Virus genome (UHGV): UHGV-0079174
Origin: a virus
Reading direction: 5' to 3' (one strand)
Length of the DNA stretch: 12,456 bases
Below, piece after piece: positions 1 to 12,456 of this stretch. The notes beneath the pieces were generated by a model. The model was not told the DNA's origin, did no database searches, and saw nothing but the letters and a program-made list of their open reading frames with translations. The stretch's first letter is position 1. Each line of letters starts with the position of its first letter. The translations under genes were made by a program, and so were the position numbers.

Positions 1-187
1 CATGTACCGGAACTTTAGGTTTTTTTCGTTGAGCGTCGCGAATAGCTTCACTGTGTGGACGTGCTGCATGAACCGGGCGGCTGTCTAAGATTAGCAAGGT
101 CTAAATACACCTCCAGTTTCAGATGGTTCCTAAAGGTGATGCTTGTGGTTATGATAGACAGAAAGATAAGACTTCCGAGGGTTAGCT

Positions 188-1021
188 ATGAGTGATGGGT
201 GGTTAGATTCTACTATGCAAGCAATAAACGATAGGATTAAAAGCCCATTATGGGGATATATCATTCTTGCATGGGTATGGTTCAACTGGCCTAACTTAGC
301 AATGCTCTTTATGAGTGATGCGCCTGTTAAGTTTCGAATAGATTATATACTATCTCAGGAATATTTTTACGCTCATTATCTGCTTGCTCCTGTCTTTTTT
401 GGAGGTGTGCTAGCTGTTATTACTCCTTATGCTCAATGGTTACTTTCTCTTGCTCAAAAATGGGCTACAGATAAACACAATGAAAATGTTTATCTTACAA
501 AGGAAAAAGAATACTTGGATTCAATCAGGTTAACGGGGTTAAAGGTTCGGGCTGCCAGAGAAGAAGAGAAAGAAAATGCTAAAATTGATGCTGATATTAA
601 AGCGGAAGTAGAGCGTGGTAAGCGTGAAGAGCTGGTCACAGAAGAGCTACAGACAGAGAAGAAACTGATTCAGAAAGAAATTAATAATTTAAAGCAGTTA
701 GTATCTAAAGAAAAACAAACCATTGAAAATATCGAGATAGAAAAAGAGAGACTACAGGATTTGATTGTTGCCTCACTTGAGGTAATGGATGATTTCTTTA
801 AAGTTGATAATAGCCATTCATTACAGCAATTGAAGAGTAGGGTAGAAGAACTTTTAACAGTTTCTGATATTGAAGCTTCTACCATACGTAACGCGCTACG
901 ACAAAAGAAAGAGCTAACTTCATCACAGACAATGAAAATGTTCGATATGGTAGAGGCTAAAATTAAAAAGGAAAAAGAAAAAGGTAATAATATAGAGTCG
1001 AATGAATTAATTAACCAATAA
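188..1021 (+). CDS. Hypothetical membrane protein: two N-terminal hydrophobic helices followed by a long charged coiled-coil-like C-terminal region
   Basis: 277-aa ORF from the track. ATG at 188 preceded by GAGGG (177-181). Hydrophobic segments WGYIILAWVWFNWPNLAMLF and HYLLAPVFFGGVLAVITPYAQWLLSLA, then an E/K-rich heptad-like sequence. No catalytic motif recognised. Confidence 0.6.
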   Translation: MSDGWLDSTMQAINDRIKSPLWGYIILAWVWFNWPNLAMLFMSDAPVKFRIDYILSQEYFYAHYLLAPVFFGGVLAVITPYAQWLLSLAQKWATDKHNENVYLTKEKEYLDSIRLTGLKVRAAREEEKENAKIDADIKAEVERGKREELVTEELQTEKKLIQKEINNLKQLVSKEKQTIENIEIEKERLQDLIVASLEVMDDFFKVDNSHSLQQLKSRVEELLTVSDIEASTIRNALRQKKELTSSQTMKMFDMVEAKIKKEKEKGNNIESNELINQ

Positions 1022-1061
1022 TGCTATGCCTGTAAATAACAGGACATAAACAGGTTAGTAC

Positions 1062-1309
1062 CTATGCAATTTAACGGTATTTTTCCAAGTATCTATGCAA
1101 TCCTACACAGATTCTATACAGTATCGACATAGCCCCTTTTTATCATAACTTATTGAAATATATAGAGAATCTGTAAATCCTCTTTTCAGGGTAAACTGTA
1201 TCGTGTTAGTCGTTCCTCTCTCGACACTACATACAGTGCTATATACAGGACTATATAACGGTGTCTATGCAGTTGGTCACTATCAATATTCCCTTAAAGT
1301 GACTATCAA
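1062..1309. repeat. Cluster of short direct repeats (iteron-like) in non-coding DNA
   Basis: CTATGCAAT at 1062-1070 and 1093-1101 (31 bp period); CTATGCAG at 1265-1272; GT(C/G)ACTATCAA at 1276-1286 and 1299-1309 (23 bp period). No ORF in the supplied track in this stretch. Confidence 0.4.
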
Positions 1310-1457
1310 GCTACTTAATAGTTTCCTATATGAAAGTTAGGAGGCGATAGTTATAGTTCCTTCGTAGTTCCCCTTAAAAAATCACTTAGAGACATCTTAA
1401 TCTATATGCAGATTTCACGTAGAACACGATTAGTGCGTAAAACAGCTATTATGTTAA

Positions 1458-1486
1458 AAACACACTGTGTTTATATCAGTACTGAT
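1458..1486. promoter_or_regulatory. Two adjacent palindromes, operator-like
   Basis: AAACACA-C-TGTGTTT (1458-1472, 7-bp arms) and a perfect 12-bp palindrome ATCAGTACTGAT (1475-1486), 2 bp apart. Confidence 0.3.
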
Positions 1487-1637
1487 TTATAAGGGTTTTG
1501 TGTATTGGCTGATAAGAGGCTATACAGCACCTTGAGAGCATGTCTTATAAGTCATTGACACATAAGGTCACAGAAGTTTGTAGCTGTTACAGAGAAAACT
1601 GGATAGGACTTCACAGAATTATAAAATGTTACAGCTA

Positions 1638-1665
1638 TTGATAGATGAAATCTTCTTGATAGATG
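1638..1665. repeat. Exact 10-bp direct repeat TTGATAGATG x2
   Basis: Copies at 1638-1647 and 1656-1665, 18 bp period, in non-coding DNA. Confidence 0.4.
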
Positions 1666-1916
1666 CTTTGAAGTGTGGTTAAGGTTTCTTGAGGTGGAGT
1701 TAACAGATGCCATGAAGAAAGTCAATAATTGGTTATAGATATTTTAACTGCTTTTGCAAAGGGGGGAGCTATATCGTGAATCTGGGGCACTTAACAGCCA
1801 TCAATTGAGTGTAGATATTTTTGAAGATTATCGGTGAAGGGGAATGTAGAGGGGTTACTACGATATTTATAAAAATTTTCAGACTCTGAAAAGTTACTGT
1901 ACAGATTTTATACAAA

Positions 1917-1940
1917 CTAAAAAGGACTCCCGAAAGAGTC
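1917..1940 (-). terminator. Candidate intrinsic terminator on the minus strand
   Basis: Stem GGACTC (1923-1928) / GAGTCC (1935-1940), 6-nt loop. On the minus strand the hairpin is followed by TTTTAGTTTGT. No T-tract follows it on the plus strand. Confidence 0.3.
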
Positions 1941-1975
1941 CCTATAAGTCGATTTTTAACGTGGCTACGACAATC

Positions 1976-2029
1976 CACCCATACCGCACCAAACCTTACC
2001 CCACCGAACCGCACCCTACACGACCTTAC
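1976..2029. repeat. C-rich (plus strand) / G-rich (minus strand) imperfect tandem repeat
   Basis: CCGCACC occurs twice and CCTTACC twice within about 55 bp (roughly CACC..ACCGCACC..CCTTACC repeated). Compositionally unlike the flanking AT-rich DNA. Confidence 0.3.
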
Positions 2030-2550
2030 CTCGCCGGACACTGCCATAGAGAGTGTGCTTGGTTGCTTTGGAAGTAAACCTAGTACAGTAAGCCATTATA
2101 CATATCGAGATAGTAACGTCAAGAAACTTTTAACAGGAGGGGTTCCTATGGTCACATATTCCCTCTCTTCCCACTAAGTAAGTCTTAGCAGCACCTAAGC
2201 AACAATTGACTAACAGGTTCGGTAGAGTCTATCTCATAGGTCAACTTCATAAACTCAGAGTTAAGTTACCTTGAAAGATTCTACCAAGAAACTACACAGG
2301 TGTTATTTAGTCTGACTGTGAAGGGATATTTAACGGGAGGAGAGATACGATATAACCCGAAGGGAGAGTATCATCTTAACAATTATCTTAAGAATAAAAC
2401 TGAAAAGTTCTTAACAGATGACTACCTAGAAAGAAGGGAACGATAAGACCAGAGGTAGTGACCTTGTTAAACAGGCTGTTTCAAAGCTCTTAAGAGTCTG
2501 TTAAGTAAGGGCTATGTGAACAATCTTACCATTTTGTCAATGCTTTTGTC

Positions 2551-2596
2551 TTTAGCAAAAAGTGCTAAACTTAACAAAAAGCACTAAATGCTAAAG
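2551..2596. promoter_or_regulatory. Repeat and inverted-repeat cluster just upstream of the methyltransferase gene
   Basis: TTTAGCA (2551-2557) / TGCTAAA (2563-2569) inverted repeat; 15-mers CAAAAAGTGCTAAAC (2556-2570) and CAAAAAGCACTAAAT (2575-2589); AAATGCTAAAG at 2586-2596 recurs at 3716-3726, and a related AAATGCTA lies in the promoter spacer at 4181-4188. Confidence 0.3.
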
Positions 2597-2634
2597 AGAC
2601 GATTAAGAAATATACTAAGAGGGGCGCTTCGCTT

Positions 2635-3303
2635 GTGTCACATCCAATAATCAATGTTGGTCGTTATCATGGTGGTTCTGATGACTGGCGTACACCGTAT
2701 CGTTTATTTCATAATCTGCATCGTGAGTTTAACTTCAGTCTAGATGGCGCTGCAACTGAGCATGACGCATTGTTGCCACGGTTCACCGATGATATTCACA
2801 ATCAATCATGGGTTGGTGAACGGGTCTTCGTTAACCCGCCGTTTAGCATGGCTGAAAAGTTCCTCTTAAAAGCCCCTGAAGCTGATGTGTGTGTATGTCT
2901 GGTTCCGCTCAGGTCAAAGACAACTTACTGGCTTCGGTGTGTATATACAAACCCCTTCCTGCATGAGATTCGAACGTTGCACCGAGCAGTCAAATACCTT
3001 CCACCAGCAGGAAAGAGAGGTGTTGTAGTGCGCTCACCGTTTCCAAGTTGCGTTTTGATATACAGGAACACACCCCGCAAACCGAAAGTTGAAGTTACCC
3101 AGACAATCTATTGTGGTGACACAATGCTTTTACTTGCCGTGGTTAACAGGGGTGGTTTACGTGGAAGACCTCATATGCACAATGCACAGACGCTTGACAG
3201 GTTGATTAAAATGTATGACCAAGGGCAACCCATCAAGAGCATCGCAGAATCGCTAAGAATGCCTCTAAGCACCACTTACAGGATTGTTCAAAGGTTGGGC
3301 TGA
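2635..3303 (+). CDS. Phage Dam-family DNA N6-adenine methyltransferase with C-terminal helix-turn-helix extension
   Basis: 222-aa ORF, GTG start 9 nt after AAGAGGGG. N-terminal DDWRTP, then VFVNPPFS (N/DPPY/F-type catalytic motif) and LVPLRSKTTYW...SPFPS, the pattern of phage Dam-type orphan methyltransferases. The last ~40 aa (GQPIKSIAESLRMPLSTTYRIVQRLG) read as a resolvase/Hin-type HTH. Family assignment is from motif memory, not a search. Confidence 0.7.
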   Translation: MSHPIINVGRYHGGSDDWRTPYRLFHNLHREFNFSLDGAATEHDALLPRFTDDIHNQSWVGERVFVNPPFSMAEKFLLKAPEADVCVCLVPLRSKTTYWLRCVYTNPFLHEIRTLHRAVKYLPPAGKRGVVVRSPFPSCVLIYRNTPRKPKVEVTQTIYCGDTMLLLAVVNRGGLRGRPHMHNAQTLDRLIKMYDQGQPIKSIAESLRMPLSTTYRIVQRLG

Positions 3304-3350
3304 AGTTCTCATATAGAGCACTGATTACGAGAATGTTAAAGATGCGATTT

Positions 3351-3541
3351 CCCCTTTCTGGGGTTATTCGCTTTTTACTGGAAGGGTTATTTTACAGAGG
3401 TTTTTCAAACCCCCTCAATAATAGAAACGAGCAACAAACGAAGAGCGAGAAATAAAAATATTGAGACTGGTGAACGGGGGTCTGTAAAGATTGTTTAAGA
3501 AGTCGGTTAAGAAGGTGGCTCTCCCTGTCTGGGGTTATCGC
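3351..3541. repeat. Direct repeat CCCT..TCTGGGGTTAT(T)CGC x2, about 171 bp apart
   Basis: CCCCTTTCTGGGGTTATTCGC (3351-3371) and CTCCCTGTCTGGGGTTATCGCC (3522-3541), in DNA with no ORF in the supplied track. Confidence 0.35.
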
Positions 3542-3768
3542 CTTGTGTCTTAGTGAGTCTTGAAAGTTCTCTGTGAAGAGTCTTGTCAGTCCTTTATATT
3601 GGCTAATTACAACTCATTGAAAAAATAAGCATTTTTAGAAATTACTGTCAGAGGGGTGAATACTTGATAGATACAGCTTTCCGGTTCTGTCAAGCTATTT
3701 ATTAATGGATAGCACAAAATGCTAAAGATACCCCTATACCATCACGTACAGGGGGTTTTGAAGGGAGT

Positions 3769-4026
3769 TTAACGGGGTTCTGTGTGGTCGTTATCCTTAA
3801 GGTCAAGCGTCCATGTACGACCGAACAGTTTAAAGACAACAAGCACTCTGACGAGGACGTAGCGAAGTAGCAGACCTGCAATCAGCCCAACACCTCCACC
3901 AGCCCATACATCAGGTGACCCCAGCTCAGGAGGGAGATTTACCATTAGTTTTCCTTGTAAGACGCTCTCAATCGCATTCTGACACAAAAAAGTACCTGAC
4001 CTTATATGTTGACCTGAAGAGGCCAT
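3769..4026 (-). CDS. Hypothetical small protein with one hydrophobic segment; coding status uncertain
   Basis: 85-aa minus-strand ORF with hydrophobic stretch GGGVGLIAGLLLRYVLVRVLVVF. A candidate minus-strand promoter lies upstream (4126-4155). Weak ribosome-binding site. Confidence 0.3.
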   Translation of the reverse strand: MASSGQHIRSGTFLCQNAIESVLQGKLMVNLPPELGSPDVWAGGGVGLIAGLLLRYVLVRVLVVFKLFGRTWTLDLKDNDHTEPR

Positions 4027-4125
4027 TTAACTCGTTACAGAGCGATTGAAGAGGTCTGTGTGCAATGCAATAACCATGCGGCCATTCTCATAGCCACGCC
4101 TCATATTTTACTCTCCCATAAACCC

Positions 4126-4155
4126 ATTATACCACAGATGTTAATAAAATGTTAA
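4126..4155 (-). promoter_or_regulatory. Candidate sigma70-type promoter on the minus strand, divergent from the plus-strand promoter
   Basis: On the minus strand: -35 TTAACA (plus 4150-4155), 18-bp spacer, -10 TATAAT (plus 4126-4131). Confidence 0.3.
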
Positions 4156-4161
4156 AAATGC

Positions 4162-4190
4162 TTGACATTAGTCTTTGAAAATGCTAGTAT
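4162..4190 (+). promoter_or_regulatory. Sigma70-type promoter (first of two matching promoters)
   Basis: -35 TTGACA (4162-4167), 17-bp spacer, -10 TAGTAT (4185-4190), followed by TGTATATATAGG (4191-4202), which is identical to the 12-mer after the second promoter. First gene starts 51 nt downstream. Confidence 0.55.
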
Positions 4191-4240
4191 TGTATATATA
4201 GGTTAACACAGAATTAACAATTATAAGGACTAGCTTATGA

Positions 4241-4795
4241 ATGAGAGACGCAGAATTTAGAGCGATGCTTCAGGCATCGAGACAACGTAACAGATACAAC
4301 TCCTACAGCTACACAGACACCCCCACCAGCTACGAATTACCCAAGCTCACCCAAAAAGAACGCAAAGGCATTGACGAAGTAATTCGGGCAATTACACCGA
4401 GGGAACGTTATATGCCAACCAGAAAGAGCACGAAGAACAGCATCAAAAATTATTTGAATAACTTCGACAGCTATGAGCAACTACCAAGTAAGCTTGATGA
4501 TATTTTCATTGGATTCTGTAGAAGTGAAGGCCACCCGAAATACAACAAAAAACTATTTTATCTTCTAAAGAATCTTGACGAAATTAACGCATCCAGCGTG
4601 ACAAATCGTCTTCAGCGTCAAGCAACCAGACTTAGCTACGAATTACCAACCGATGCCTATTGTGCATTGCTTGCTGTAATGTGTGCAAAGCTAATTGGTA
4701 TTGTTGAACATCATATTGCCGTTGGTAATATTGAGCCAATGGAAAACGAGCAACCAGACTTTGAGTTTGACCCGTATATTTTGGAGGAATTTTAA
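4241..4795 (+). CDS. Hypothetical protein with acidic C-terminal tail
   Basis: 184-aa ORF, ATG at 4241 preceded by TAAGGA. C-terminal EPMENEQPDFEFDPYILEEF. No recognisable domain. Confidence 0.55.
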   Translation: MRDAEFRAMLQASRQRNRYNSYSYTDTPTSYELPKLTQKERKGIDEVIRAITPRERYMPTRKSTKNSIKNYLNNFDSYEQLPSKLDDIFIGFCRSEGHPKYNKKLFYLLKNLDEINASSVTNRLQRQATRLSYELPTDAYCALLAVMCAKLIGIVEHHIAVGNIEPMENEQPDFEFDPYILEEF

Positions 4796-4796
4796 A

Positions 4797-5078
4797 ATGG
4801 GAAATAAACACACATTAACCAGAGTTACAAAGACAGCCTTTGAAGAGCTTAACCGAATCAAAAACATTACAGGTCTGCCACACTCAGCAGTGATGAAGCT
4901 TGCAATTAACCGTGATATTAACGAACAAGATTTGCTTAATAGTCGCTTAGAGGCAGCAAGACACCATATCAGGATTAAGCAAGATGACCTTGATAGTCTG
5001 AAATATTTAAATGCTTTTGGACTGGATTTAGCAAGGTTACTAAGCATCAAAATTCACAAATTAGCGATGGAGGTTTAA
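4797..5078 (+). CDS. Small protein, possibly a ribbon-helix-helix DNA-binding protein
   Basis: ATG at 4797 sits 9 nt after GGAGG (4783-4787) and 1 nt after the upstream stop; the track's 4695 start would overlap the upstream gene by 100 nt. N-terminus KHTLTRVTKTAFEELNRIKNITGLPHSAVMKLAI resembles a strand-helix-helix pattern. Fold call is tentative. Confidence 0.5.
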   Translation: MGNKHTLTRVTKTAFEELNRIKNITGLPHSAVMKLAINRDINEQDLLNSRLEAARHHIRIKQDDLDSLKYLNAFGLDLARLLSIKIHKLAMEV

Positions 5079-5464
5079 TGTATGACTTTTATAAACATCG
5101 TGACCATTTGGTAAGATTTGACGGTAAAGTCTGGAAAGACGTAACACAAACCAATAAACCCAAGTTTACCCACCAGCAATTAGCCTCAAGATTTGATATC
5201 TGGACTGAAGCACAAAAAGATAATGGTGATTTCGAGTTTATCAGAGGTTTTGATTATTCTTACGAAGACGACCTTAAAGACGCCATTAAATTAATTGAGA
5301 ACTTCAACTCTATTAAAAATGGTGACAAGCACAAAGCCAACGGTAACAGATACGATAAAGATTTAATCATTGATGCAATCACCAAAGGACAATCACAAAG
5401 TTATATTTCTGAGAAATACGGCTTATCACGTAGTCAATACTACAAGATTAAAGCGTCTGTGTAA
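5078..5464 (+). CDS. Hypothetical protein with C-terminal helix-turn-helix
   Basis: 128-aa ORF. Its ATG overlaps the upstream stop (TAATG at 5076-5080), indicating translational coupling. C-terminal DAITKGQSQSYISEKYGLSRSQYYKIK is the same resolvase-type HTH flavour as the methyltransferase C-terminus. Confidence 0.6.
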   Translation: MYDFYKHRDHLVRFDGKVWKDVTQTNKPKFTHQQLASRFDIWTEAQKDNGDFEFIRGFDYSYEDDLKDAIKLIENFNSIKNGDKHKANGNRYDKDLIIDAITKGQSQSYISEKYGLSRSQYYKIKASV

Positions 5465-5476
5465 GTCTGTGAGAAT

Positions 5477-5523
5477 GAGTGAGACTCAAAGATGAGCTAC
5501 CCTATTACTAAGGTGTCTCACTC
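5477..5523. promoter_or_regulatory. 9-bp perfect inverted repeat GAGTGAGAC / GTCTCACTC separated by 29 bp
   Basis: Arms at 5477-5485 and 5515-5523, between two genes. No T-tract follows, so it is more likely a binding site or RNA structure than a simple terminator. Confidence 0.3.
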
Positions 5524-5602
5524 CCTCTGTAACCCGCATGGTTACTGGCCTCAGGATGGCTATTTTGGCAGATTTAAGATGTGTTTTTAGAGGATTTTAA
5601 AA

Positions 5603-5926
5603 ATGAATAATTTCCCGCTACAGATTTTCGTTGATAGCGACACCGCTCTGATGATTCAGGCTTTCAGTGATTCCGGTGTATCAATTGACTTTGATAAATT
5701 ACTAAAGCTAATGGCTGATAACTCAGAAACAATTGAAGATTTTATTCAGGAAATTGAAACTGGTGACCCACGTTTTATGTTTCCCGTTACCGACTCAAAC
5801 ATGAAGCGCCTTATTATTGAGGAAACTAACCGATACAGCGTTAGCCCTGAAAAATATCTCAAGGCGGCTATAGTAATTTTGTACGCTGACAATGTTTTGG
5901 TTACGGATTCGAAGGTGGTGCATTAA
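5603..5926 (+). CDS. Hypothetical acidic protein
   Basis: 107-aa ORF, ATG at 5603 preceded by AGAGGA (5589-5594). Confidence 0.55.
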   Translation: MNNFPLQIFVDSDTALMIQAFSDSGVSIDFDKLLKLMADNSETIEDFIQEIETGDPRFMFPVTDSNMKRLIIEETNRYSVSPEKYLKAAIVILYADNVLVTDSKVVH

Positions 5927-5991
5927 TGGAATTGGTGATTATCTGTTTTGTATTGATTGGTATGATTGCAGGTGCATCTATTAAAGTATAA
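5926..5991 (+). CDS. Candidate 21-aa hydrophobic micro-protein MELVIICFVLIGMIAGASIKV
   Basis: ATG overlaps the upstream stop (TAATG at 5924-5928). Almost entirely hydrophobic, one predicted transmembrane helix. Below the ORF-track size threshold. Confidence 0.3.
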   Translation: MELVIICFVLIGMIAGASIKV

Positions 5992-6015
5992 ATGTTACCA
6001 ATCTGTTAAAAGCTG

Positions 6016-6044
6016 TTGACAAATAACCTTGAGCATGACATAAT
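6016..6044 (+). promoter_or_regulatory. Sigma70-type promoter (second of two matching promoters)
   Basis: -35 TTGACA (6016-6021), 17-bp spacer, -10 CATAAT (6039-6044), followed by TGTATATATAGG (6045-6056). Confidence 0.55.
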
Positions 6045-6146
6045 TGTATATATAGGGAGAGCAATTCTCCTTGAATTAAAATATTAATCATTCTACATCG
6101 ATGATAACTATATTCTGAGTTGGAAAGGTGCAATGCTTTTCGCTAC

Positions 6147-6175
6147 ATGACCTCTTATATAACTTGAGAGGTCAT
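6147..6175 (+). promoter_or_regulatory. Hairpin in the long leader (9-bp stem ATGACCTCT / AGAGGTCAT, 11-nt loop)
   Basis: Perfect 9-bp inverted repeat about 100 nt downstream of the predicted start site. No T-tract follows. Confidence 0.35.
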
Positions 6176-6234
6176 CTCGAAAAGTCTTTGTTCATTCATT
6201 GAATCCTTTAGATGTTCTTTAATTTCTTCACCTT

Positions 6235-6270
6235 AGCCCTTTATAGCGTTTTAGTTATCTAGGGCTTTTT
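6235..6270 (+). terminator. Terminator-like hairpin inside the leader (possible attenuator)
   Basis: Stem AGCCCT (6235-6240) / AGGGCT (6261-6266), 20-nt loop, then TTTT (6267-6270). Lies about 190-220 nt downstream of the promoter and about 110 nt before the first gene. The long loop weakens the call. Confidence 0.3.
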
Positions 6271-6378
6271 CAGCTTTTAAAAAGCATACATGGCAAACGC
6301 TTTTAAGTCTCTTCTAAGTTCGTAGGCTGTCAGGTGTGCTTTTTAAAAACTGAATATTACTTAGAAGAGGAAAATGAA

Positions 6379-7086
6379 ATGGAAAATCTATATATTAGCG
6401 GTAGAAAGGTTGATAGCTTCGGTGACTGGTCGCCACAGACTGAACATCCAGCTATCACTATTCAGCGTAAAGAACACGATGAAAGAATTAAGCTTGAGCA
6501 ATCGTTAAAGATGTCACCAAAGGTAATTTCCTTTGTGTCTCCTGAGCCTCAAGAAATGCCAGATATCTGCAAAAGTGAAGCACTATTTAATCTTGAGCGT
6601 GAATATTACCCACAGTTAAAAGCACAGCGTATTAAACTTGATGACGCTTACAGCAAAGTTACCCTGATGCAATCAGCTATTGAGCCGTCAGAATTTGAGA
6701 TTCAGGATGAATTGTCACAGAAACCATTTGTCTATTACAAATATGAAGACAATGATGGTTTTGGTACTTTTCCTGAGAATATCCCAGACGTGATTAATAA
6801 TCTTTCTGACGGATATCGAATTGTGAAGATGGTTAAGGCATCAAGAGGTGCTGGTCAGTTTATTTACATGACTAATAAGAGCGATGAAGAACTCGCTGAA
6901 CTTGCTAGACAGAACATCTTGGCATCACGTAACAAGCAGCTTGATAGTGCTAAGTTGTATCTCTCAAGAGAGCTTCAGGCTATGAAAGAGCTTGTTAGTG
7001 AATATGAGTCGCAGAAGAAGGTTGCTATGCAGGCTGATATTGAGCAGCTTACGAAGATTTCTAGCAAATATGCAAAAGCTATTTGA
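6379..7086 (+). CDS. Hypothetical protein with C-terminal coiled-coil-like region
   Basis: In-frame ATG at 6379 preceded by GAGGAAAA (6367-6374); the track's GTG at 6334 has no ribosome-binding site. 235 aa from 6379. No recognisable domain. Confidence 0.55.
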   Translation: MENLYISGRKVDSFGDWSPQTEHPAITIQRKEHDERIKLEQSLKMSPKVISFVSPEPQEMPDICKSEALFNLEREYYPQLKAQRIKLDDAYSKVTLMQSAIEPSEFEIQDELSQKPFVYYKYEDNDGFGTFPENIPDVINNLSDGYRIVKMVKASRGAGQFIYMTNKSDEELAELARQNILASRNKQLDSAKLYLSRELQAMKELVSEYESQKKVAMQADIEQLTKISSKYAKAI

Positions 7087-7094
7087 GGTGATTA

Positions 7095-7403
7095 ATGAGT
7101 GATTTAACAGAACGCGATAAAAGAATTAAAGGGGTGATGGAACCTTTTGAAGATAGGTTCAATGAAATTAAAACGACTCTTGGTGATATTCAGGAGGTCA
7201 CTGAATATCTTATTGGTCGTATGGACGAAAAGCCTCTTGCCGAACTAAAGTTTGAGGGTCGAGATGATTTAACCTTCCTTATTAGAGACCTCAAGCGAGA
7301 TGTAGGACGGCTTGAATCTATCTTTGATAAAGCTGGTCTCTCAATACGTTACGAAATTGTAAAGAATGAACGCGGTGTAAAGTGCATTCACTTCTTGGAG
7401 TGA
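7095..7403 (+). CDS. Hypothetical small acidic protein
   Basis: 102-aa ORF. Extended Shine-Dalgarno GAGGTGAT (7085-7092) before ATG 7095. N-terminus MSDLTER. Confidence 0.55.
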   Translation: MSDLTERDKRIKGVMEPFEDRFNEIKTTLGDIQEVTEYLIGRMDEKPLAELKFEGRDDLTFLIRDLKRDVGRLESIFDKAGLSIRYEIVKNERGVKCIHFLE

Positions 7404-7425
7404 AAATTGAATTATGAGGTGATGA

Positions 7426-7632
7426 ATGATTGATTTAACAGAACGCTATGAACTCATCAGGGCAATTAGCGAACGATTGAAAGAACAACCCAACAAACCA
7501 AAACGAATCAAATCATCCACCTCTAAGCAAAATAACAGAATCAGAAGAATCGCTAAATGGTGTCTTGATAAATTACCAAGTGATTGTCAGATTGTCGGTG
7601 AAGATGGCAATTATTATCTTGTCAGACATTAA
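7426..7632 (+). CDS. Hypothetical small basic protein
   Basis: 68-aa ORF. GAGGTGAT (7416-7423) before ATG 7426. N-terminus MIDLTER. Its first ~37 bp are near-identical to the start region of the gene at 7095. Confidence 0.5.
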   Translation: MIDLTERYELIRAISERLKEQPNKPKRIKSSTSKQNNRIRRIAKWCLDKLPSDCQIVGEDGNYYLVRH

Positions 7633-7658
7633 AAAGAATTGGTTGGGTAAAAATCAAC

Positions 7659-7699
7659 GGGAGAGATTATCGAGTGACATCGGTAGCTCTCCCTTTTTT
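7659..7699 (+). terminator. Candidate intrinsic terminator
   Basis: Stem GGGAGAG (7659-7665) / CTCTCCC (7687-7693) followed by TTTTTT (7694-7699). The 21-nt loop is long for a canonical terminator. Confidence 0.4.
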
Positions 7700-7814
7700 G
7701 TATATGTGCTACGTGATGATTCGGATAAGAATTATCCTCATGAAATCTGTAAAGCTAATACCCACACTGAAAAATAGAATTTACGTACAACACGCTTAAA
7801 GAGGTGAAACATGA

Positions 7815-9863
7815 ATGAGCAAATTCACAGTTGATAGTTTTATCGTTGAACTAGGCTTCAATGAGAACGTTATTAAAGGTCTGCAAAAAGTTGAAAAGGC
7901 AGCTTTGCAGTCAGCACAAAGAATTGAACGTAATTTGAATAGAGCGTTTAAGGTCGATACCAAGCAACTTGACAGTAATTTAACGGCTTCTTTAAAGTCA
8001 ATGGAAGGGAAGATTAATAAGACCTTTGACCGTCTGGAAGCTAGAGCAAAAAATACTAAAGCTTTCCGTTTCACAAGTCAGGTTAATGACGCTATTAATC
8101 CTCCAAAACAACCAAGACAGCCACGAATTAGCGGAAACAGAGCAATCACAGCAGCTTATTCAGCTAATATGAGCAAGCTGAAAGGTCTTAACCCAATTGT
8201 CGAGAAATACATTAAGAGTCAGTTTTACGCATTAAGTAGTAAAGCTGGTCAGATGGATAACACCAAGTTTAATGAAGCCCTCGCTAAACTAAATTCAAGT
8301 GTACGAGAAGCAATTGCTAAAGCCAGAGGTCATACATCCACCAGCATTAACGGTGACAGAGCAGCTAGCAGTCTTGATAGTCTGTCTTCAGCAGCAGTTA
8401 AAACAGCAGGTGCATTTATCAGCTTTCAGGCTGTACTATCCGCTTATCAGCGAGTAATGGAAGTTGGCCTTCAACGTGCATCATCGGAAAGAAGTATTGA
8501 TTTCGTATTCGGTGACCAAAGTACACAGGTTAAAAAGTTCATTCAAGATTTAACTCAAATTACTGGTATGGACACAACCGAAACACAAGCACAATTTGCT
8601 TCATTTGGTGCATCTGCAACGACTACGATGGGTCTTGAAGGGTCAGAAGAGTTATTTAAAAACCTTACAGGTTATGCTCGTTTAATGGGTCGTTCAGATG
8701 AGCAGATTCAAAGAGCATTAACCGCAGTGTCACAGATGGCCTCTAAGGGTCAGGTGATGGCTGAGGAGTTGAAGGGGCAATTATCTGAAGCTTTGCCGGG
8801 TGCTACTCAGGCATTTGCAAAGGCTTTAGGTCTGACTGAAAAACAACTTTTCGATAAGATGAAAAATGGTGATGTTAAAGCCTCTGATGCACTTCCTAAG
8901 TTTGCTAAAGAACTTGGTGCACAGATTAATTCAAGAGGTGGCTGGAAAGCTATTCAGGACTCTACGCAGACAATGTTAGGGAACTTAAAGAATACCTGGA
9001 ATAACTCACTAACGGATATTTTCAGAGGTTCTGAAAATGGTCTGCAAGATTTTACACGAAGCCTAACAACGCTTTTAAACAGTTTAGGTGGAAGTGGTAA
9101 AAGTCTTGGTGAATCTCTTGGTAGCTTGATGACTGATATGTCGCATGGTGTGGATAGCCTGACCGATATCAGTTACAGAGTGAGAGCTTTCTTTGATGAG
9201 GTGACATTGGCTTACCGTGGTTTAACCGATGAGCAAAAGAAAGTAGTTGATGCTTTAGGTTCTGGCTTGATTAATAGTTTAAAAGTCTTGGCTGGTGTTA
9301 TTGCTGTAAATAAAGTTGTTGGTGTAACCAGAAGTATTTACGGGCTTATGACTGCTATCACAAGATTAGGTCAGGTCGCTGATACAACAGCGGATAACGT
9401 GAATAGAAAGAACGGGAAACCATCAAGGTTTAATCTTGGGAATATGCTATTAGCTGGTAGTGCTATCTATGCAGGTTATGAGAGATTAGCTTCTACGCCT
9501 GAACGAATGGAAGCACAAGCTAAATTACCAGAGCTGGCTAAAGAGTCTGGACTTAAGCCAGTATTTACTATGGACGATGTGAAAGGTTGGTTTAATAGTG
9601 CTGCTATGAATCTTGCTAACTTCCAGCATCCAGAATTAATCACCATGAGACAAGATGCGGCATTAACGAATACGGATATCCAAAGCCTGAGAGATGAAAT
9701 TAGTGCTTTGAGCAAACGTATTCAGGAGCCTGTGAAAGTTTCACTTGGTGGTGAAGTTGCCATTAAACCAGATGAAACCAGCTTTATGACCTTTAGCAGT
9801 AATATCTACGACCAATACGCAGAAGCTACGCTATTAAGTTCATCATTCCCAGAAGATGATTGA
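7815..9863 (+). CDS. Tape-measure-like protein (phage tail length tape-measure domain)
   Basis: 682-aa ORF, AAGAGGTGA before ATG 7815. Central segment KGQVMAEELKGQLSEALPGATQAFAKALGLTEKQLFDKMKNGDVKASDALPKFAKELGAQ matches the conserved tape-measure domain pattern from memory. A/S/G/L-rich helical composition with internal hydrophobic segments. Confidence 0.6.
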   Translation: MSKFTVDSFIVELGFNENVIKGLQKVEKAALQSAQRIERNLNRAFKVDTKQLDSNLTASLKSMEGKINKTFDRLEARAKNTKAFRFTSQVNDAINPPKQPRQPRISGNRAITAAYSANMSKLKGLNPIVEKYIKSQFYALSSKAGQMDNTKFNEALAKLNSSVREAIAKARGHTSTSINGDRAASSLDSLSSAAVKTAGAFISFQAVLSAYQRVMEVGLQRASSERSIDFVFGDQSTQVKKFIQDLTQITGMDTTETQAQFASFGASATTTMGLEGSEELFKNLTGYARLMGRSDEQIQRALTAVSQMASKGQVMAEELKGQLSEALPGATQAFAKALGLTEKQLFDKMKNGDVKASDALPKFAKELGAQINSRGGWKAIQDSTQTMLGNLKNTWNNSLTDIFRGSENGLQDFTRSLTTLLNSLGGSGKSLGESLGSLMTDMSHGVDSLTDISYRVRAFFDEVTLAYRGLTDEQKKVVDALGSGLINSLKVLAGVIAVNKVVGVTRSIYGLMTAITRLGQVADTTADNVNRKNGKPSRFNLGNMLLAGSAIYAGYERLASTPERMEAQAKLPELAKESGLKPVFTMDDVKGWFNSAAMNLANFQHPELITMRQDAALTNTDIQSLRDEISALSKRIQEPVKVSLGGEVAIKPDETSFMTFSSNIYDQYAEATLLSSSFPEDD

Positions 9864-9875
9864 TAATAGTCGAAT

Positions 9876-9930
9876 GCTACGTGAAATCTCCTGAACAGAT
9901 ATACCCACCAAAAATTATTTTTCACGTAGC
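9876..9930. promoter_or_regulatory. 11-bp perfect inverted repeat GCTACGTGAAA / TTTCACGTAGC separated by 33 bp
   Basis: Arms at 9876-9886 and 9920-9930, between the tape-measure-like gene and the next gene. TTTCACGTAG also occurs at 1413-1422. Confidence 0.35.
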
Positions 9931-10020
9931 TCACGCTTAACAGATAAAACACTTAAATATCAAAGGCTTGGTTAAAAATGATTAAAATACACTAAGTCTT
10001 TGAAATCAAAGGAGAATATA

Positions 10021-10794
10021 ATGATTTACACTAATCAACTTCGTTACAGTGGCAAAGATGGTATCTATTTCCACTTAAGAGATAATGTAGATGCCTTCTT
10101 AACCTTATCAGCAACTGAAAACATGGAATTTGACAGCCCTATGCAGGTGACTACACAGAACATGCAATCAGGGCAAACCGTAACAGATAACGTGCAAAGA
10201 GCACCCAGAACAATCACTATTAGTGGTGTCGTTGTAGTTGGCTATGAAGGAAGCTTATTATTAACTCGTCAGGGTCAATTAGTAGAAAATTTCATCGACA
10301 CTCTTGAAAGCTGGCGTGACCAGAAGCAGATTATTTCTGTCATCTGTCGAGACGGTATCAAAATTGATGATTCCATTATTACGAGTTTTAAAGCCTCTAA
10401 AGATGTTGGAATTTCAAATGGTCTAAGAATCCAGCTAACTTTTCAGGAAATTAACTTCAAAGCCATTGTGGGTCAGACTGATATCTCTGCTGCAACTGGA
10501 AAGACCGCTACCACAAATGATGGTGGTGCTACTTCTAAGAAAAATACGGGTAACACTACGACAAGTCTAGGTAATGGTATGTTGATGTGTCAGGAGCTAT
10601 ATAATCGCTCTACGAGTGAACTCACTAATGAGCAACTTCAAGCCCGTATCAATTGTGGTAGAAGTGTCAAAGTTGAGAACGGAAAAAGCACCTTCTCAGA
10701 TGCCGCTAATGAGCAAGCTTCGAAAGTGCTTAGTAATGCTGGTACAGGTAGTACTTTGAAGAAATTTTCTGTAAATCCTAACAAGCGATACTGA
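10021..10794 (+). CDS. Hypothetical protein, possibly tail-associated by position
   Basis: ATG at 10021 sits 6 nt after AAGGAG (10009-10014); the track's TTG at 10000 is less likely. 257 aa from 10021. C-terminal third is T/G/N/S-rich low complexity. Function is inferred only from lying immediately after the tape-measure-like gene. Confidence 0.5.
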
Positions 10795-10808
10795 CGATAG
10801 AATCTCAA

Positions 10809-12332
10809 CTATATGATAACCTCATCAACATCTATTAAACCCCTCTCAGTGACTTCAGAAAGCGACTGTATAGCCTCTGTAACGTCCTCTGAGGGGTTTT
10901 CTGTTATTGATAGGTCAATTACCTTACCGTTGTGAAAACTTACTTTACAGCGACGTTTAGCAGTATTTAAAACGACCTCTTTAACAGCACTTTTGATTAT
11001 CAGTTGTGCTTCAATCCTTCCCGCCTTTGTAGTCAAGTCACAATCAGACAAACAACCAACATCAATAGATTTAAGGCGTTGTGTCTCCTTCTCGATATCC
11101 GCATCAACCTGTGATAGCTCACCTTTTAACTGCTTTAGTTTGATGGTAATAGCTGACAAATCTTCAATTTCAAGTGATAGCTGTACCAGCTTTTCAATAT
11201 TGCTTGAGATGTGTTCACGGTGTAGCTTCAGCGTATCTATGGTATTCGTCATATCGCTATCAAATCGGTCAAGACGAGATAGCAGGGTAAGTAATGTACC
11301 ATCAGTTTGCTTACGTGAAAGTCCTTTAGCACTACAACGGTTTTCATTACGAAGGGGACAACGATAAATCCCGCTTCTTGTATCGCTAAAGCCTGTGATA
11401 ATCAAAGCATGACCACATTCAGAACAACGGATAACACCTTTGAAAAGATTCACAGCCATTGGCTTATCTGAAGCAGGTTTTCTACCGTAACGAGAATATG
11501 ATAGTTGTTGAACTTTGTAGAATGTTGTTTCATCTATAATTGCAGGATAATAACCAGCTATCTCCTCACAGCCTTTAGGTGTGAAGTAACCAATTACAGA
11601 GCGATTTTTCAGAAGGTCTTGTACTGAGGTTTGACCAAATGAACCCGCTTTATATTGGTTAAGCGTCTGGTGACCTTCATCATTAAGAGTCCTGACAATC
11701 TCCCAGATAGACTTACCCTCTAACCGTAGCTGAAAGCACCTCTTCACAGTCTCCACTTTCTCAGGGATTACAGAGAAGCTTTTACGGTCATCATTAAGCT
11801 TAAGCCATGCAGGACAACGTTTAGAAATCTTGATACCTTCAGAGATGAGTTCTTTTTTACGGTTCCATGCAGCTTGTATACGCTCAGACTTCCTCAAACT
11901 CTCCTCATGCGACCGCTGCATTATCAGAATGCTTTTAATCAGAGCTAACGGGTCTTTAAGAGATTCTCGTGTGTAATGTTCACCATCGGACAAGGTGACC
12001 ACATCTACACCAGAGCGAAGAATGTTTCTGAGTAGCTCACTTGCTTGGTCTACATCTTGACGTGACAGACGGTCAAGAGATTCTATCAAGAGCGTATCAC
12101 CAGCTTTAACAAGCCCTTTCTCGATAGCGGTTAAAAAGTCACCTAAGCCACCTTTCAAGTGCTTACCAGTGAACCCACTCACCCCCAAATCACGGAAGGA
12201 TAAATCTTGGTCAAGGTAGTACTCAGGATGAGCCTTAAGCCAGTCATTAACCATCTTAGACTGTCTGCGTAGTGAGTCGCCTTTGGCTTGTCGCTCAGAA
12301 CTGAATCTGATGTAGCTGATTACACGTTTCAT
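10809..12332 (-). CDS. Large serine recombinase (probable integrase of the element)
   Basis: 507-aa ORF. N-terminal resolvase-type catalytic domain with YIRFSSERQ (nucleophile-serine motif, compare YIRVSTEEQ), a Cys-rich zinc-ribbon-like segment CSECGH...YRCPLRNENRC, and a C-terminal coiled-coil region. This is the domain order of phage-type large serine integrases. Confidence 0.85.
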   Translation of the reverse strand: MKRVISYIRFSSERQAKGDSLRRQSKMVNDWLKAHPEYYLDQDLSFRDLGVSGFTGKHLKGGLGDFLTAIEKGLVKAGDTLLIESLDRLSRQDVDQASELLRNILRSGVDVVTLSDGEHYTRESLKDPLALIKSILIMQRSHEESLRKSERIQAAWNRKKELISEGIKISKRCPAWLKLNDDRKSFSVIPEKVETVKRCFQLRLEGKSIWEIVRTLNDEGHQTLNQYKAGSFGQTSVQDLLKNRSVIGYFTPKGCEEIAGYYPAIIDETTFYKVQQLSYSRYGRKPASDKPMAVNLFKGVIRCSECGHALIITGFSDTRSGIYRCPLRNENRCSAKGLSRKQTDGTLLTLLSRLDRFDSDMTNTIDTLKLHREHISSNIEKLVQLSLEIEDLSAITIKLKQLKGELSQVDADIEKETQRLKSIDVGCLSDCDLTTKAGRIEAQLIIKSAVKEVVLNTAKRRCKVSFHNGKVIDLSITENPSEDVTEAIQSLSEVTERGLIDVDEVII

Positions 12333-12361
12333 TCTTTACCACCATAAAAACTAATAGCGCG

Positions 12362-12390
12362 ATTGTATCGCTTTAGGTGGTGTATTTAAA
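12362..12390 (-). promoter_or_regulatory. Candidate promoter for the recombinase gene
   Basis: On the minus strand: -35 TTTAAA (plus 12385-12390), 17-bp spacer, -10 TACAAT (plus 12362-12367). The -10 overlaps the palindrome GCGAT-TGT-ATCGC (12359-12371). Confidence 0.25.
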
Positions 12391-12456
12391 CGTGTCTGAT
12401 GAAAATCACCCGATTAACGCCGCGCTGATGTAAACCGCGATTAAGCGTTTGTTCCT

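Follow-up and report, generated by a model that had tools for sequence, protein, structure and literature searches.

The operators of dimeric repressors, such as lambda OR/OL, those of 434 and P22, and tetO of TetR, are short, perfect and conserved dyads, and operators normally travel and co-evolve with their repressors. A short, perfect and conserved dyad is likewise found in the DNA analysed here, a window of 12,456 nucleotides from the UHGV virus genome UHGV-0079174, where it lies beside a second palindrome. The surrounding sequence reads ...GTTAAAAACACACTGTGTTTATATCAGTACTGATTTATAAGGG..., and its parts are listed below (none is assigned to a strand).

1458–1472: palindrome 1, AAACACACTGTGTTT, with 7-bp arms (AAACACA and TGTGTTT), an unpaired central C and an odd centre

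1475–1486: palindrome 2, ATCAGTACTGAT, a perfect even 12-bp dyad

1464–1468: conserved ACTGT, a possible upstream half-site; its ACTG is complementary to CAGT of palindrome 2

1469–1473: 5-nt spacer of constant length and free sequence; GTTTA in the window and ATACG, ATATG or ATACA in most relatives

1474–1499: invariant 26-nt block TATCAGTACTGATTTATAAGGGTTTT, which consists of palindrome 2 and an asymmetric right extension

about 1330–1735: module A, a non-coding accessory cassette of about 400 bp that holds the palindromes; present in 292 of 5426 complete E. coli genomes

Palindrome 1 ends at 1472 and palindrome 2 starts at 1475, separated by the two bases AT. An earlier note had described both (1458–1486) as an operator-like pair, and its sequences and coordinates were exact on re-reading.

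The half-site of tetO (TCTATCA-N-TGATAGA) resembles TATCA/TGAT of palindrome 2, but the spacing between TATCA and TGAT is 4 bp in palindrome 2 and 1 bp in tetO. Unlike the operators named above, palindrome 2 spans only 12 bp, its half-sites abut, it occurs once and in a dispensable cassette, and it has neither an overlapping promoter nor an adjoining cognate repressor gene. A second comparison is with the SOS box of LexA, with the consensus TACTGTATATATATACAGTA, where CTGT-N8-ACAG equals CTG-N10-CAG over 16 bp. The majority allele of the locus, ACTGTATACGTATCAGT, resembles such a box one base short; the spacing is one base less in every relative examined, and there is no regulated promoter. 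The commonest allele can also be written as ATACGTAT·CAGTACTG, with 8 bp from centre to centre, which is reminiscent of the operators of ribbon-helix-helix proteins (met-boxes of MetJ; Arc, Mnt, CopG). Unlike in those operators, the first box varies (ATATGTAT, ATACATAT, GTTTATAT), the two boxes are dissimilar, and no ribbon-helix-helix family was detected.

Satellites that copy the packaging region of a helper form another group of relevant systems (cos of P4, which equals cos of P2; pac-type signals of SaPI/PICI and PICMI; T7-type junctions). The window contains an island that may be a satellite of Felix O1-type phages (Felixounavirus), its putative helpers, and the 1.6-kb non-coding region of this island has two segments homologous to the 581-bp terminal repeat of these phages together with its short-repeat vocabulary. 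Unlike satellite-copied packaging signals, the palindrome segment has no counterpart in 50,697 phage records. In its context, the island can be compared with PLE of Vibrio cholerae, a satellite of the virulent myovirus ICP1: each is a small chromosomal island that encodes a large serine recombinase and neither capsid nor terminase, has an extended non-coding cis region, and is tied by sequence to a virulent myovirus. Unlike PLE, with which it shares no detectable protein homology, the island has its own tape-measure and Dit-like genes, is free of GATC, and, in the collections searched, was found in E. coli only.

Chance expectation and conservation of the palindromes

Perfect 12-bp palindromes had been called rare in 12 kb, which did not hold against the chance model, namely 1000 dinucleotide-preserving shuffles of the whole window. 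Of these shuffles, 968 contained one or more perfect even palindromes of ≥12 bp (mean 3.5), and palindrome 2 is the only one in the real window. The rarity argument fails because a 12-bp palindrome requires just six complementary matches. Odd palindromes with arms of ≥7 bp occur three times in the window, with 1.0 expected from the shuffles. In a post hoc test, 6 of the 1000 shuffles had an even palindrome of ≥12 bp no more than 5 bp away from an odd palindrome with 7-bp arms; this adjacency is the only unusual feature of the two palindromes, and the statistic was picked after seeing the data. No further copy of either palindrome was found in the island with 2–3 mismatches allowed (for palindrome 2, no second copy at up to 2 mismatches), nor was there a copy in the helper-type phage genome or in resolvase-type variants of the island.

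Conservation was followed over 42 loci, comprising 32 metagenome and 2 viral-contig loci as well as E. coli loci that span the identity range. The metagenome and viral-contig loci were gathered via an independent anchor 40 bp downstream of the palindromes, so that the collection was not conditioned on the palindromes. Of the 42 loci, 41 have palindrome 2 in exact form; the lone exception is a singleton C>A change, which breaks the dyad. The arms of palindrome 1 are complementary in only five loci because they sit on two patches in which the variable positions cluster (1461–62 and 1469–73). Palindrome 1 arises only where 'CA' in the first patch is combined with 'GTTTA' in the second, and the commonest sequences at its slot are AAACGCACTGTATAC and AAACACACTGTATAT. 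Judging by this distribution, palindrome 1 is evidently a lineage-specific accident of two independently variable patches. The earlier note had looked to homologous regions for conservation of both palindromes: palindrome 2 is retained there and palindrome 1 is not, and with its arms surviving in 5 of 42 loci there is no conserved pair. Palindrome 2 is a real conserved dyad by the same comparison and could be a protein-binding site.

The ACTGT motif is kept in every variant of the palindrome 1 slot in the 42-locus comparison and is invariant in the 39 unique aligned sequences with one exception (L045, GCTGT). Block TATCAGTACTGATTTATAAGGGTTTT is exact in 36 of the 42 loci and is the longest conserved run of the cassette that is free of search-anchor bias, with palindrome 2 as its left half. 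Conservation continues rightward beyond palindrome 2 in an asymmetric manner, and the right part of the block, TTATAAGGGT, is a 10-mer that is also present in the terminal non-coding region of the helper phage. The invariance of the block is not very specific because about 71% of the cassette columns are invariant or singleton anyway. Other equally clean runs of about 20 nt are found at 1518–1546, 1562–1581, 1584–1602 and 1623–1644. Changes that compensate each other and preserve the dyad of palindrome 2 were found in none of the 42 loci.

The non-coding region and its exchangeable cassette

Module A is part of a longer non-coding region, in which several segments relate to the phages:

1022–2634 (no strand): non-coding left-end region, unannotated in RefSeq and without a convincing ORF; a mosaic of conserved and exchangeable blocks

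1690–1761 (plus strand): segment resembling the right part of the direct terminal repeat of Felixounavirus (phage warpig 43880–43947)

1948–2040 (plus strand): about 12 ACCNN pentamer repeats, homologous to the array that adjoins the DNA ligase gene in intergenic DNA of Felixounavirus and Suspvirus

2411–2470 (plus strand): homologue of the central part of the direct terminal repeat of Felixounavirus (blastn E=2.6e-10, terminal junction of phage Pr103Blw)

Matches to region 1022–2634 occur in 551 of 5426 complete E. coli genomes. Module A is never annotated in the genomes that carry it, where its identity ranges from 83 to 100%. It is absent from 50,697 phage records and from 72,556 plasmids, and a search of the GTDB species representatives with one anchor pattern and the Dam-HTH protein as queries gave no matches. 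In some relatives, a small serine recombinase (resolvase) gene replaces 1280–1735 or 1370–1814, and an AP2/HNH-type gene can replace 1915–2330. Strain FAM21845 has two islands (L050 and L051) whose core proteins share accession numbers and which differ in their serine recombinases and insertion sites: the island next to wrbA/ymdF has module A, and the one in yecE has the resolvase instead. Module A is dispensable, as it is missing from sister islands with identical core proteins.

Two ideas suggested by the resolvases were rejected. A degenerate resolvase pseudogene in the cassette is contradicted by tblastn with the cassette-replacing resolvases, which gave no match, and an invertible Hin-like switch by the resolvase genes themselves, which have no flanking inverted repeats. 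A small protein-coding gene was likewise discarded: the 28-aa ORF at 1406–1492 loses its ATG in most relatives, and the variable sites of the cassette are spread over the codon phases as 37/43/39, so there is no codon periodicity.

Felixounavirus Pr103Blw packages its DNA via 581-bp direct terminal repeats (PMC8303462), and its record MW481326 annotates these repeats at both ends. In warpig, they correspond to the middle of a 1.65-kb non-coding region (42.9–44.6 kb), which is made of phased words of about 10–11 bp, e.g., CTTGTTA, CTGTTAAGA and GCTATACAGA. The genome paper of Felix O1 does not discuss these non-coding regions. Island region 1022–2634 has 3–4 times the average number of 9- and 10-mers in common with the terminal region of the helper, and words enriched in the latter are 2.8 times denser in 1022–2634 than elsewhere in the window. 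Local alignment to the helper gave a score of 34 for 1690–1761 (maximum of 27 in 300 shuffles) and of 54 for 2411–2470 (shuffle maximum of 26); the two segments may be a mimic of the packaging signal. Inside module A, the words common to the helper are conserved at 87%, compared with 74% for the rest (p=0.03). The palindrome segment 1440–1520 does not stand out in this respect, as 196 of 300 shuffles align equally well to the helper terminal region, and BLAST gave no match to it in Felix O1-type phages even at E≤10. A likeness of the block to the right end of the helper terminal repeat (AGTACTTGTAAGGG), which had been seen by eye, was dropped on the same shuffle result.

The ACCNN array is 77–80% identical to more than 100 phage records and is unannotated DNA in most of those listed. 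The start of the match (1948–1966) overlaps the conserved leader GATTTTTAACGTGGCTAC at 1951–1968. The array is bracketed by a minus-strand promoter (TTGACG-16-TATAAT, 2122→2095) and a good terminator (1943→1922), which predicts a (GGTNN)n RNA of about 170 nt with a fold z of −2.1. The ends of the warpig record fall within its own ACCNN-type array. The terminal non-coding region of warpig (L048) also contains a perfect 16-bp palindrome, TATATAGTACTATATA, at 44407–44422, which is centred on AGTACT like ATCAGTACTGAT; this likeness may be a coincidence because only the 6-bp core is in common.

RNA and promoter signals were looked for in module A and around the palindromes. There was no Rfam match at E≤1 and no tRNA, fold stability of module A on the two strands did not differ from shuffles (z of +0.33 and −0.40), and the plus strand had zero base pairs with two-sided changes; a structured non-coding RNA was rejected on these grounds. 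Folded as DNA hairpins, the window allele reaches −4.1 kcal/mol and the majority alleles −1.5 and −1.8 kcal/mol, with non-significant z-scores. A Rho-independent terminator was not called by the scan, and the stems are AT-rich and lack a T-tract. A role at the level of DNA is favoured because there is no RNA family match, stable fold or compensatory pair.

No sigma-70-like promoter lies within 100 bp of the palindromes; the nearest such sites (1330–1357 and 1600–1627) match at 9 of 12 positions, and their count is no higher than in shuffles. The promoter scan placed the strong promoter-like sites of the island at 4126–4190 (a divergent pair), 6016–6044 and 2122→2095 (minus strand). A scan of 1000–2700 for the IHF consensus gave no match, and the sole DnaA-like site there, at 1674 and about 190 bp from the palindromes, has one mismatch. 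CRP and sigma-54 sites were not seen by eye near the palindromes, and a sigma-54-like TGGC...GGC near 1507 is not conserved. Mimicry of a helper early promoter was another idea raised by eye (TCAGTACTGATTTATAAGGG against the repeated helper promoter AAAGTACTTTACAAGGGGC). It was abandoned after negative profile and BLAST searches; the nhmmer profile of six helper early promoters did not match the block even at E≤1000.

The island and its candidate regulators

The island corresponds to 95–12404 of the window (12,310 bp) and splits yecE (DUF72) of E. coli. It is 100% identical in the E. coli strains MS20645 and FDAARGOS_1252, and related islands also adjoin yciI or sit at wrbA/ymdF. The genes that matter here are the following.

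2635–3303 (plus strand): Dam-family N6-adenine methyltransferase (PF05869, 9.7e-14) with a C-terminal HTH_7 (PF02796, 1e-5)

7815–9863 (plus strand): tape-measure protein (Pfam TMP_3), Felixounavirus-related

10000–10794 (plus strand): Dit-like baseplate protein (Pfam Dit_like), Felixounavirus-related

10809–12332 (minus strand): large serine recombinase, the integrase (Pfam Resolvase, Recombinase, Zn_ribbon_recom)

The remaining genes include several that encode small proteins without a family assignment. The Dit-like gene is 93–95% identical to Felixounavirus phages at the DNA level, and 10045–10593 is 93% identical to 72481–73029 of phage warpig (MN850637). Capsid, portal, terminase and replication families were not found among the island proteins. 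With an integrase and helper-related genes and signals, and with no capsid, terminase or portal gene, the island appears to be a hitherto undescribed satellite of virulent Felix O1-type phages. Literature searches gave no report of a satellite associated with Felix O1-type phages or with yecE. Tail-length and baseplate genes of its own would be unusual for a satellite; the tape-measure protein has 682 aa in the island and 742 aa in the helper-type phage (warpig 70223–72451).

GATC is absent from the window (45.5 expected) and from the 86-kb genome of warpig (299 expected). As followed in the window and in locus L001 (7973–20907), the zone without GATC coincides with the island, and the density of GATC in the flanking chromosome is normal. 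The shared absence is independent support for a putative satellite–helper relation. The GATC-free island still encodes a Dam-family methyltransferase. As a further observation, seven island lengths amount to 86,170 bp and the Felix O1 genome to 86,155 bp, which is probably numerology because the sister island L050 is about 12.0 kb long and L051 is similar by a rough estimate.

At least three helix-turn-helix or ribbon-helix-helix candidates had been proposed to be encoded by the element. One helix-turn-helix domain passes and one is sub-threshold; a ribbon-helix-helix family was not detected by Pfam among the island proteins. The former is HTH_7 (PF02796) of the Dam protein, which scores 26 bits with a curated cut-off of 23.8 and is, the recombinase apart, the only DNA-binding domain of the island above a curated threshold. 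The latter is HTH_28 in 5078–5464 (E=0.003). Across loci, the identity of the candidate regulators ranges between 57 and 100% (among the core proteins, p93, 57–98%; p184, 56–100%; Dam-HTH, 62–100%) while the site is invariant. The core genes are reassorting mosaics, each in two or three allelic types, and the only linkage between spacer alleles and protein alleles is to the type of the neighbouring Dam gene. As the site is invariant while the helix-turn-helix proteins of the island diverge, these proteins are disfavoured as its binders. The pattern favours a conserved factor of the host or the helper, or the absence of any binder.

The divergent promoter pair at 4126–4190 consists of TTAACA-18-TATAAT on the minus strand and TTGACA-17-TAGTAT on the plus strand, each with a TG upstream, and sits upstream of the operon at 4241. 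It is far more likely than the palindromes to be the switch for the helix-turn-helix proteins of the island.

Possible readings of the conserved block

The best explanation that we can offer, and one that we hold tentatively, is that palindrome 2 within its 26-bp block is a recognition site on double-stranded DNA for one conserved dimeric protein; we infer both the binding and the binder. The site would comprise ATCAGT·ACTGAT as the dyad, ACTGT as a half-site upstream of the free 5-bp spacer, and an asymmetric tail. One dimeric protein of the host or the helper would recognize the block as double-stranded DNA, and the block would belong to an optional cis-module inside a left-end control region that resembles the helper terminus. 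In its favour, ACTGT, the free 5-nt spacer and TATCAGT·ACTGAT resemble spaced half-sites, and the block is near-invariant although the identity of the cassette drops to 83% over the same loci. The flanking homology to the helper terminal repeat and the better-conserved words common to both also count for it. A mosaic set of satellite proteins beside an invariant site suggests a conserved binder, and the putative binder is more likely to be encoded by the host or the helper than to be one of the diversified helix-turn-helix proteins of the island. Against a recognition site stand the chance expectation of about 3.5 such palindromes per window, the high share of invariant or singleton columns in the cassette, the rightward asymmetry of conservation, the lack of covariation, the single copy, the lack of a nearby promoter, and the sister islands that do without the cassette.

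Several of these points would fit a different account, which we regard as a serious possibility: the dyad may be incidental, and the block may owe its conservation to being part of a longer cis-acting signal for packaging or replication, to an unstructured transcript, or to recent spread of the cassette. One palindrome was seen where 3.5 were expected, the four neighbouring blocks between 1518 and 1644 are equally invariant, symmetry has no support from covariation, and conservation extends asymmetrically into TTTATAAGGGTTTT, the core of which is a word common to the helper terminal region. What speaks for the dyad itself is that palindrome 2 lies wholly within the best unbiased block, for which we estimate a chance of about 4% for a random 12-mer, and that a conserved ACTGT with a free spacer fits the architecture of a site better than uniform constraint does. 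A tandem operator pair that is bound by helix-turn-helix or ribbon-helix-helix regulators of the island and controls a promoter, as the earlier note proposed, is improbable in our judgement. Its best arguments are the adjacency in only 6 of 1000 shuffles, at least one bona fide and one sub-threshold helix-turn-helix domain in the island, and a majority allele that forms two abutting 8-bp palindromes, ATACGTAT and CAGTACTG. The proposal kept the conserved palindrome 2 and lost palindrome 1 (5 of 42 loci), the promoter (none within 100 bp), repetition (a single-copy site) and co-variation with a regulator: the ATATG and ATACA alleles disrupt the alternative 8-bp box, identity among the candidate regulators falls to 57–65% with the site unchanged, and the cassette is missing from an island of the same strain with identical core proteins.

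The remaining readings carry less weight. That the locus acts through a hairpin or cruciform, in single-stranded DNA or in RNA, whether as a T7-like priming or processing hairpin, a terminator or part of a small RNA, is very unlikely. In favour of this, DNA homologous to the helper terminal repeat is about 200 bp away, a priming/processing hairpin has been proposed for the T7 concatemer junction, and the 16-bp palindrome TATATAGTACTATATA of the helper terminal region is likewise centred on AGTACT. The energies of −4.1, −1.5 and −1.8 kcal/mol are weak and their z-scores non-significant, however, neither strand has a T-tract terminator, an Rfam match or a fold signal, and palindrome 2 has no loop. 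That the locus is an SOS box or the site of a LexA-like repressor is scarcely credible. The majority allele AACTGTATACGTATCAGTAC resembles TACTGTATATATATACAGTA, and every relative has CTGT and CAG with an AT-rich spacer between them, but CTG-N9-CAG is found in all 25 unique cassettes and the canonical CTG-N10-CAG in none, and there is no promoter to repress.

Returning to the recognition-site reading, a more specific version of it, which we put forward as a doubtful speculation, is that the ATCAGTACTGAT block docks a Felixounavirus or host protein for infection sensing or packaging. Module A would then be a plug-in cis-module of an undescribed family of E. coli satellites, which would parasitise virulent Felix O1-type phages through copies of their terminal-repeat region.

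As a cis-element, palindrome 2 is of an ordinary kind, a short conserved dyad, and its satellite context is probably new and more interesting. DNA matching the non-coding region of the island is present in about 10% of complete E. coli genomes. Felix O1-type phages have wide use in typing, biocontrol and therapy. If a helper or host protein engages it, the block would provide a handle on how the satellite is triggered or packaged, and a clue to why some strains may resist Felix O1-type phages.
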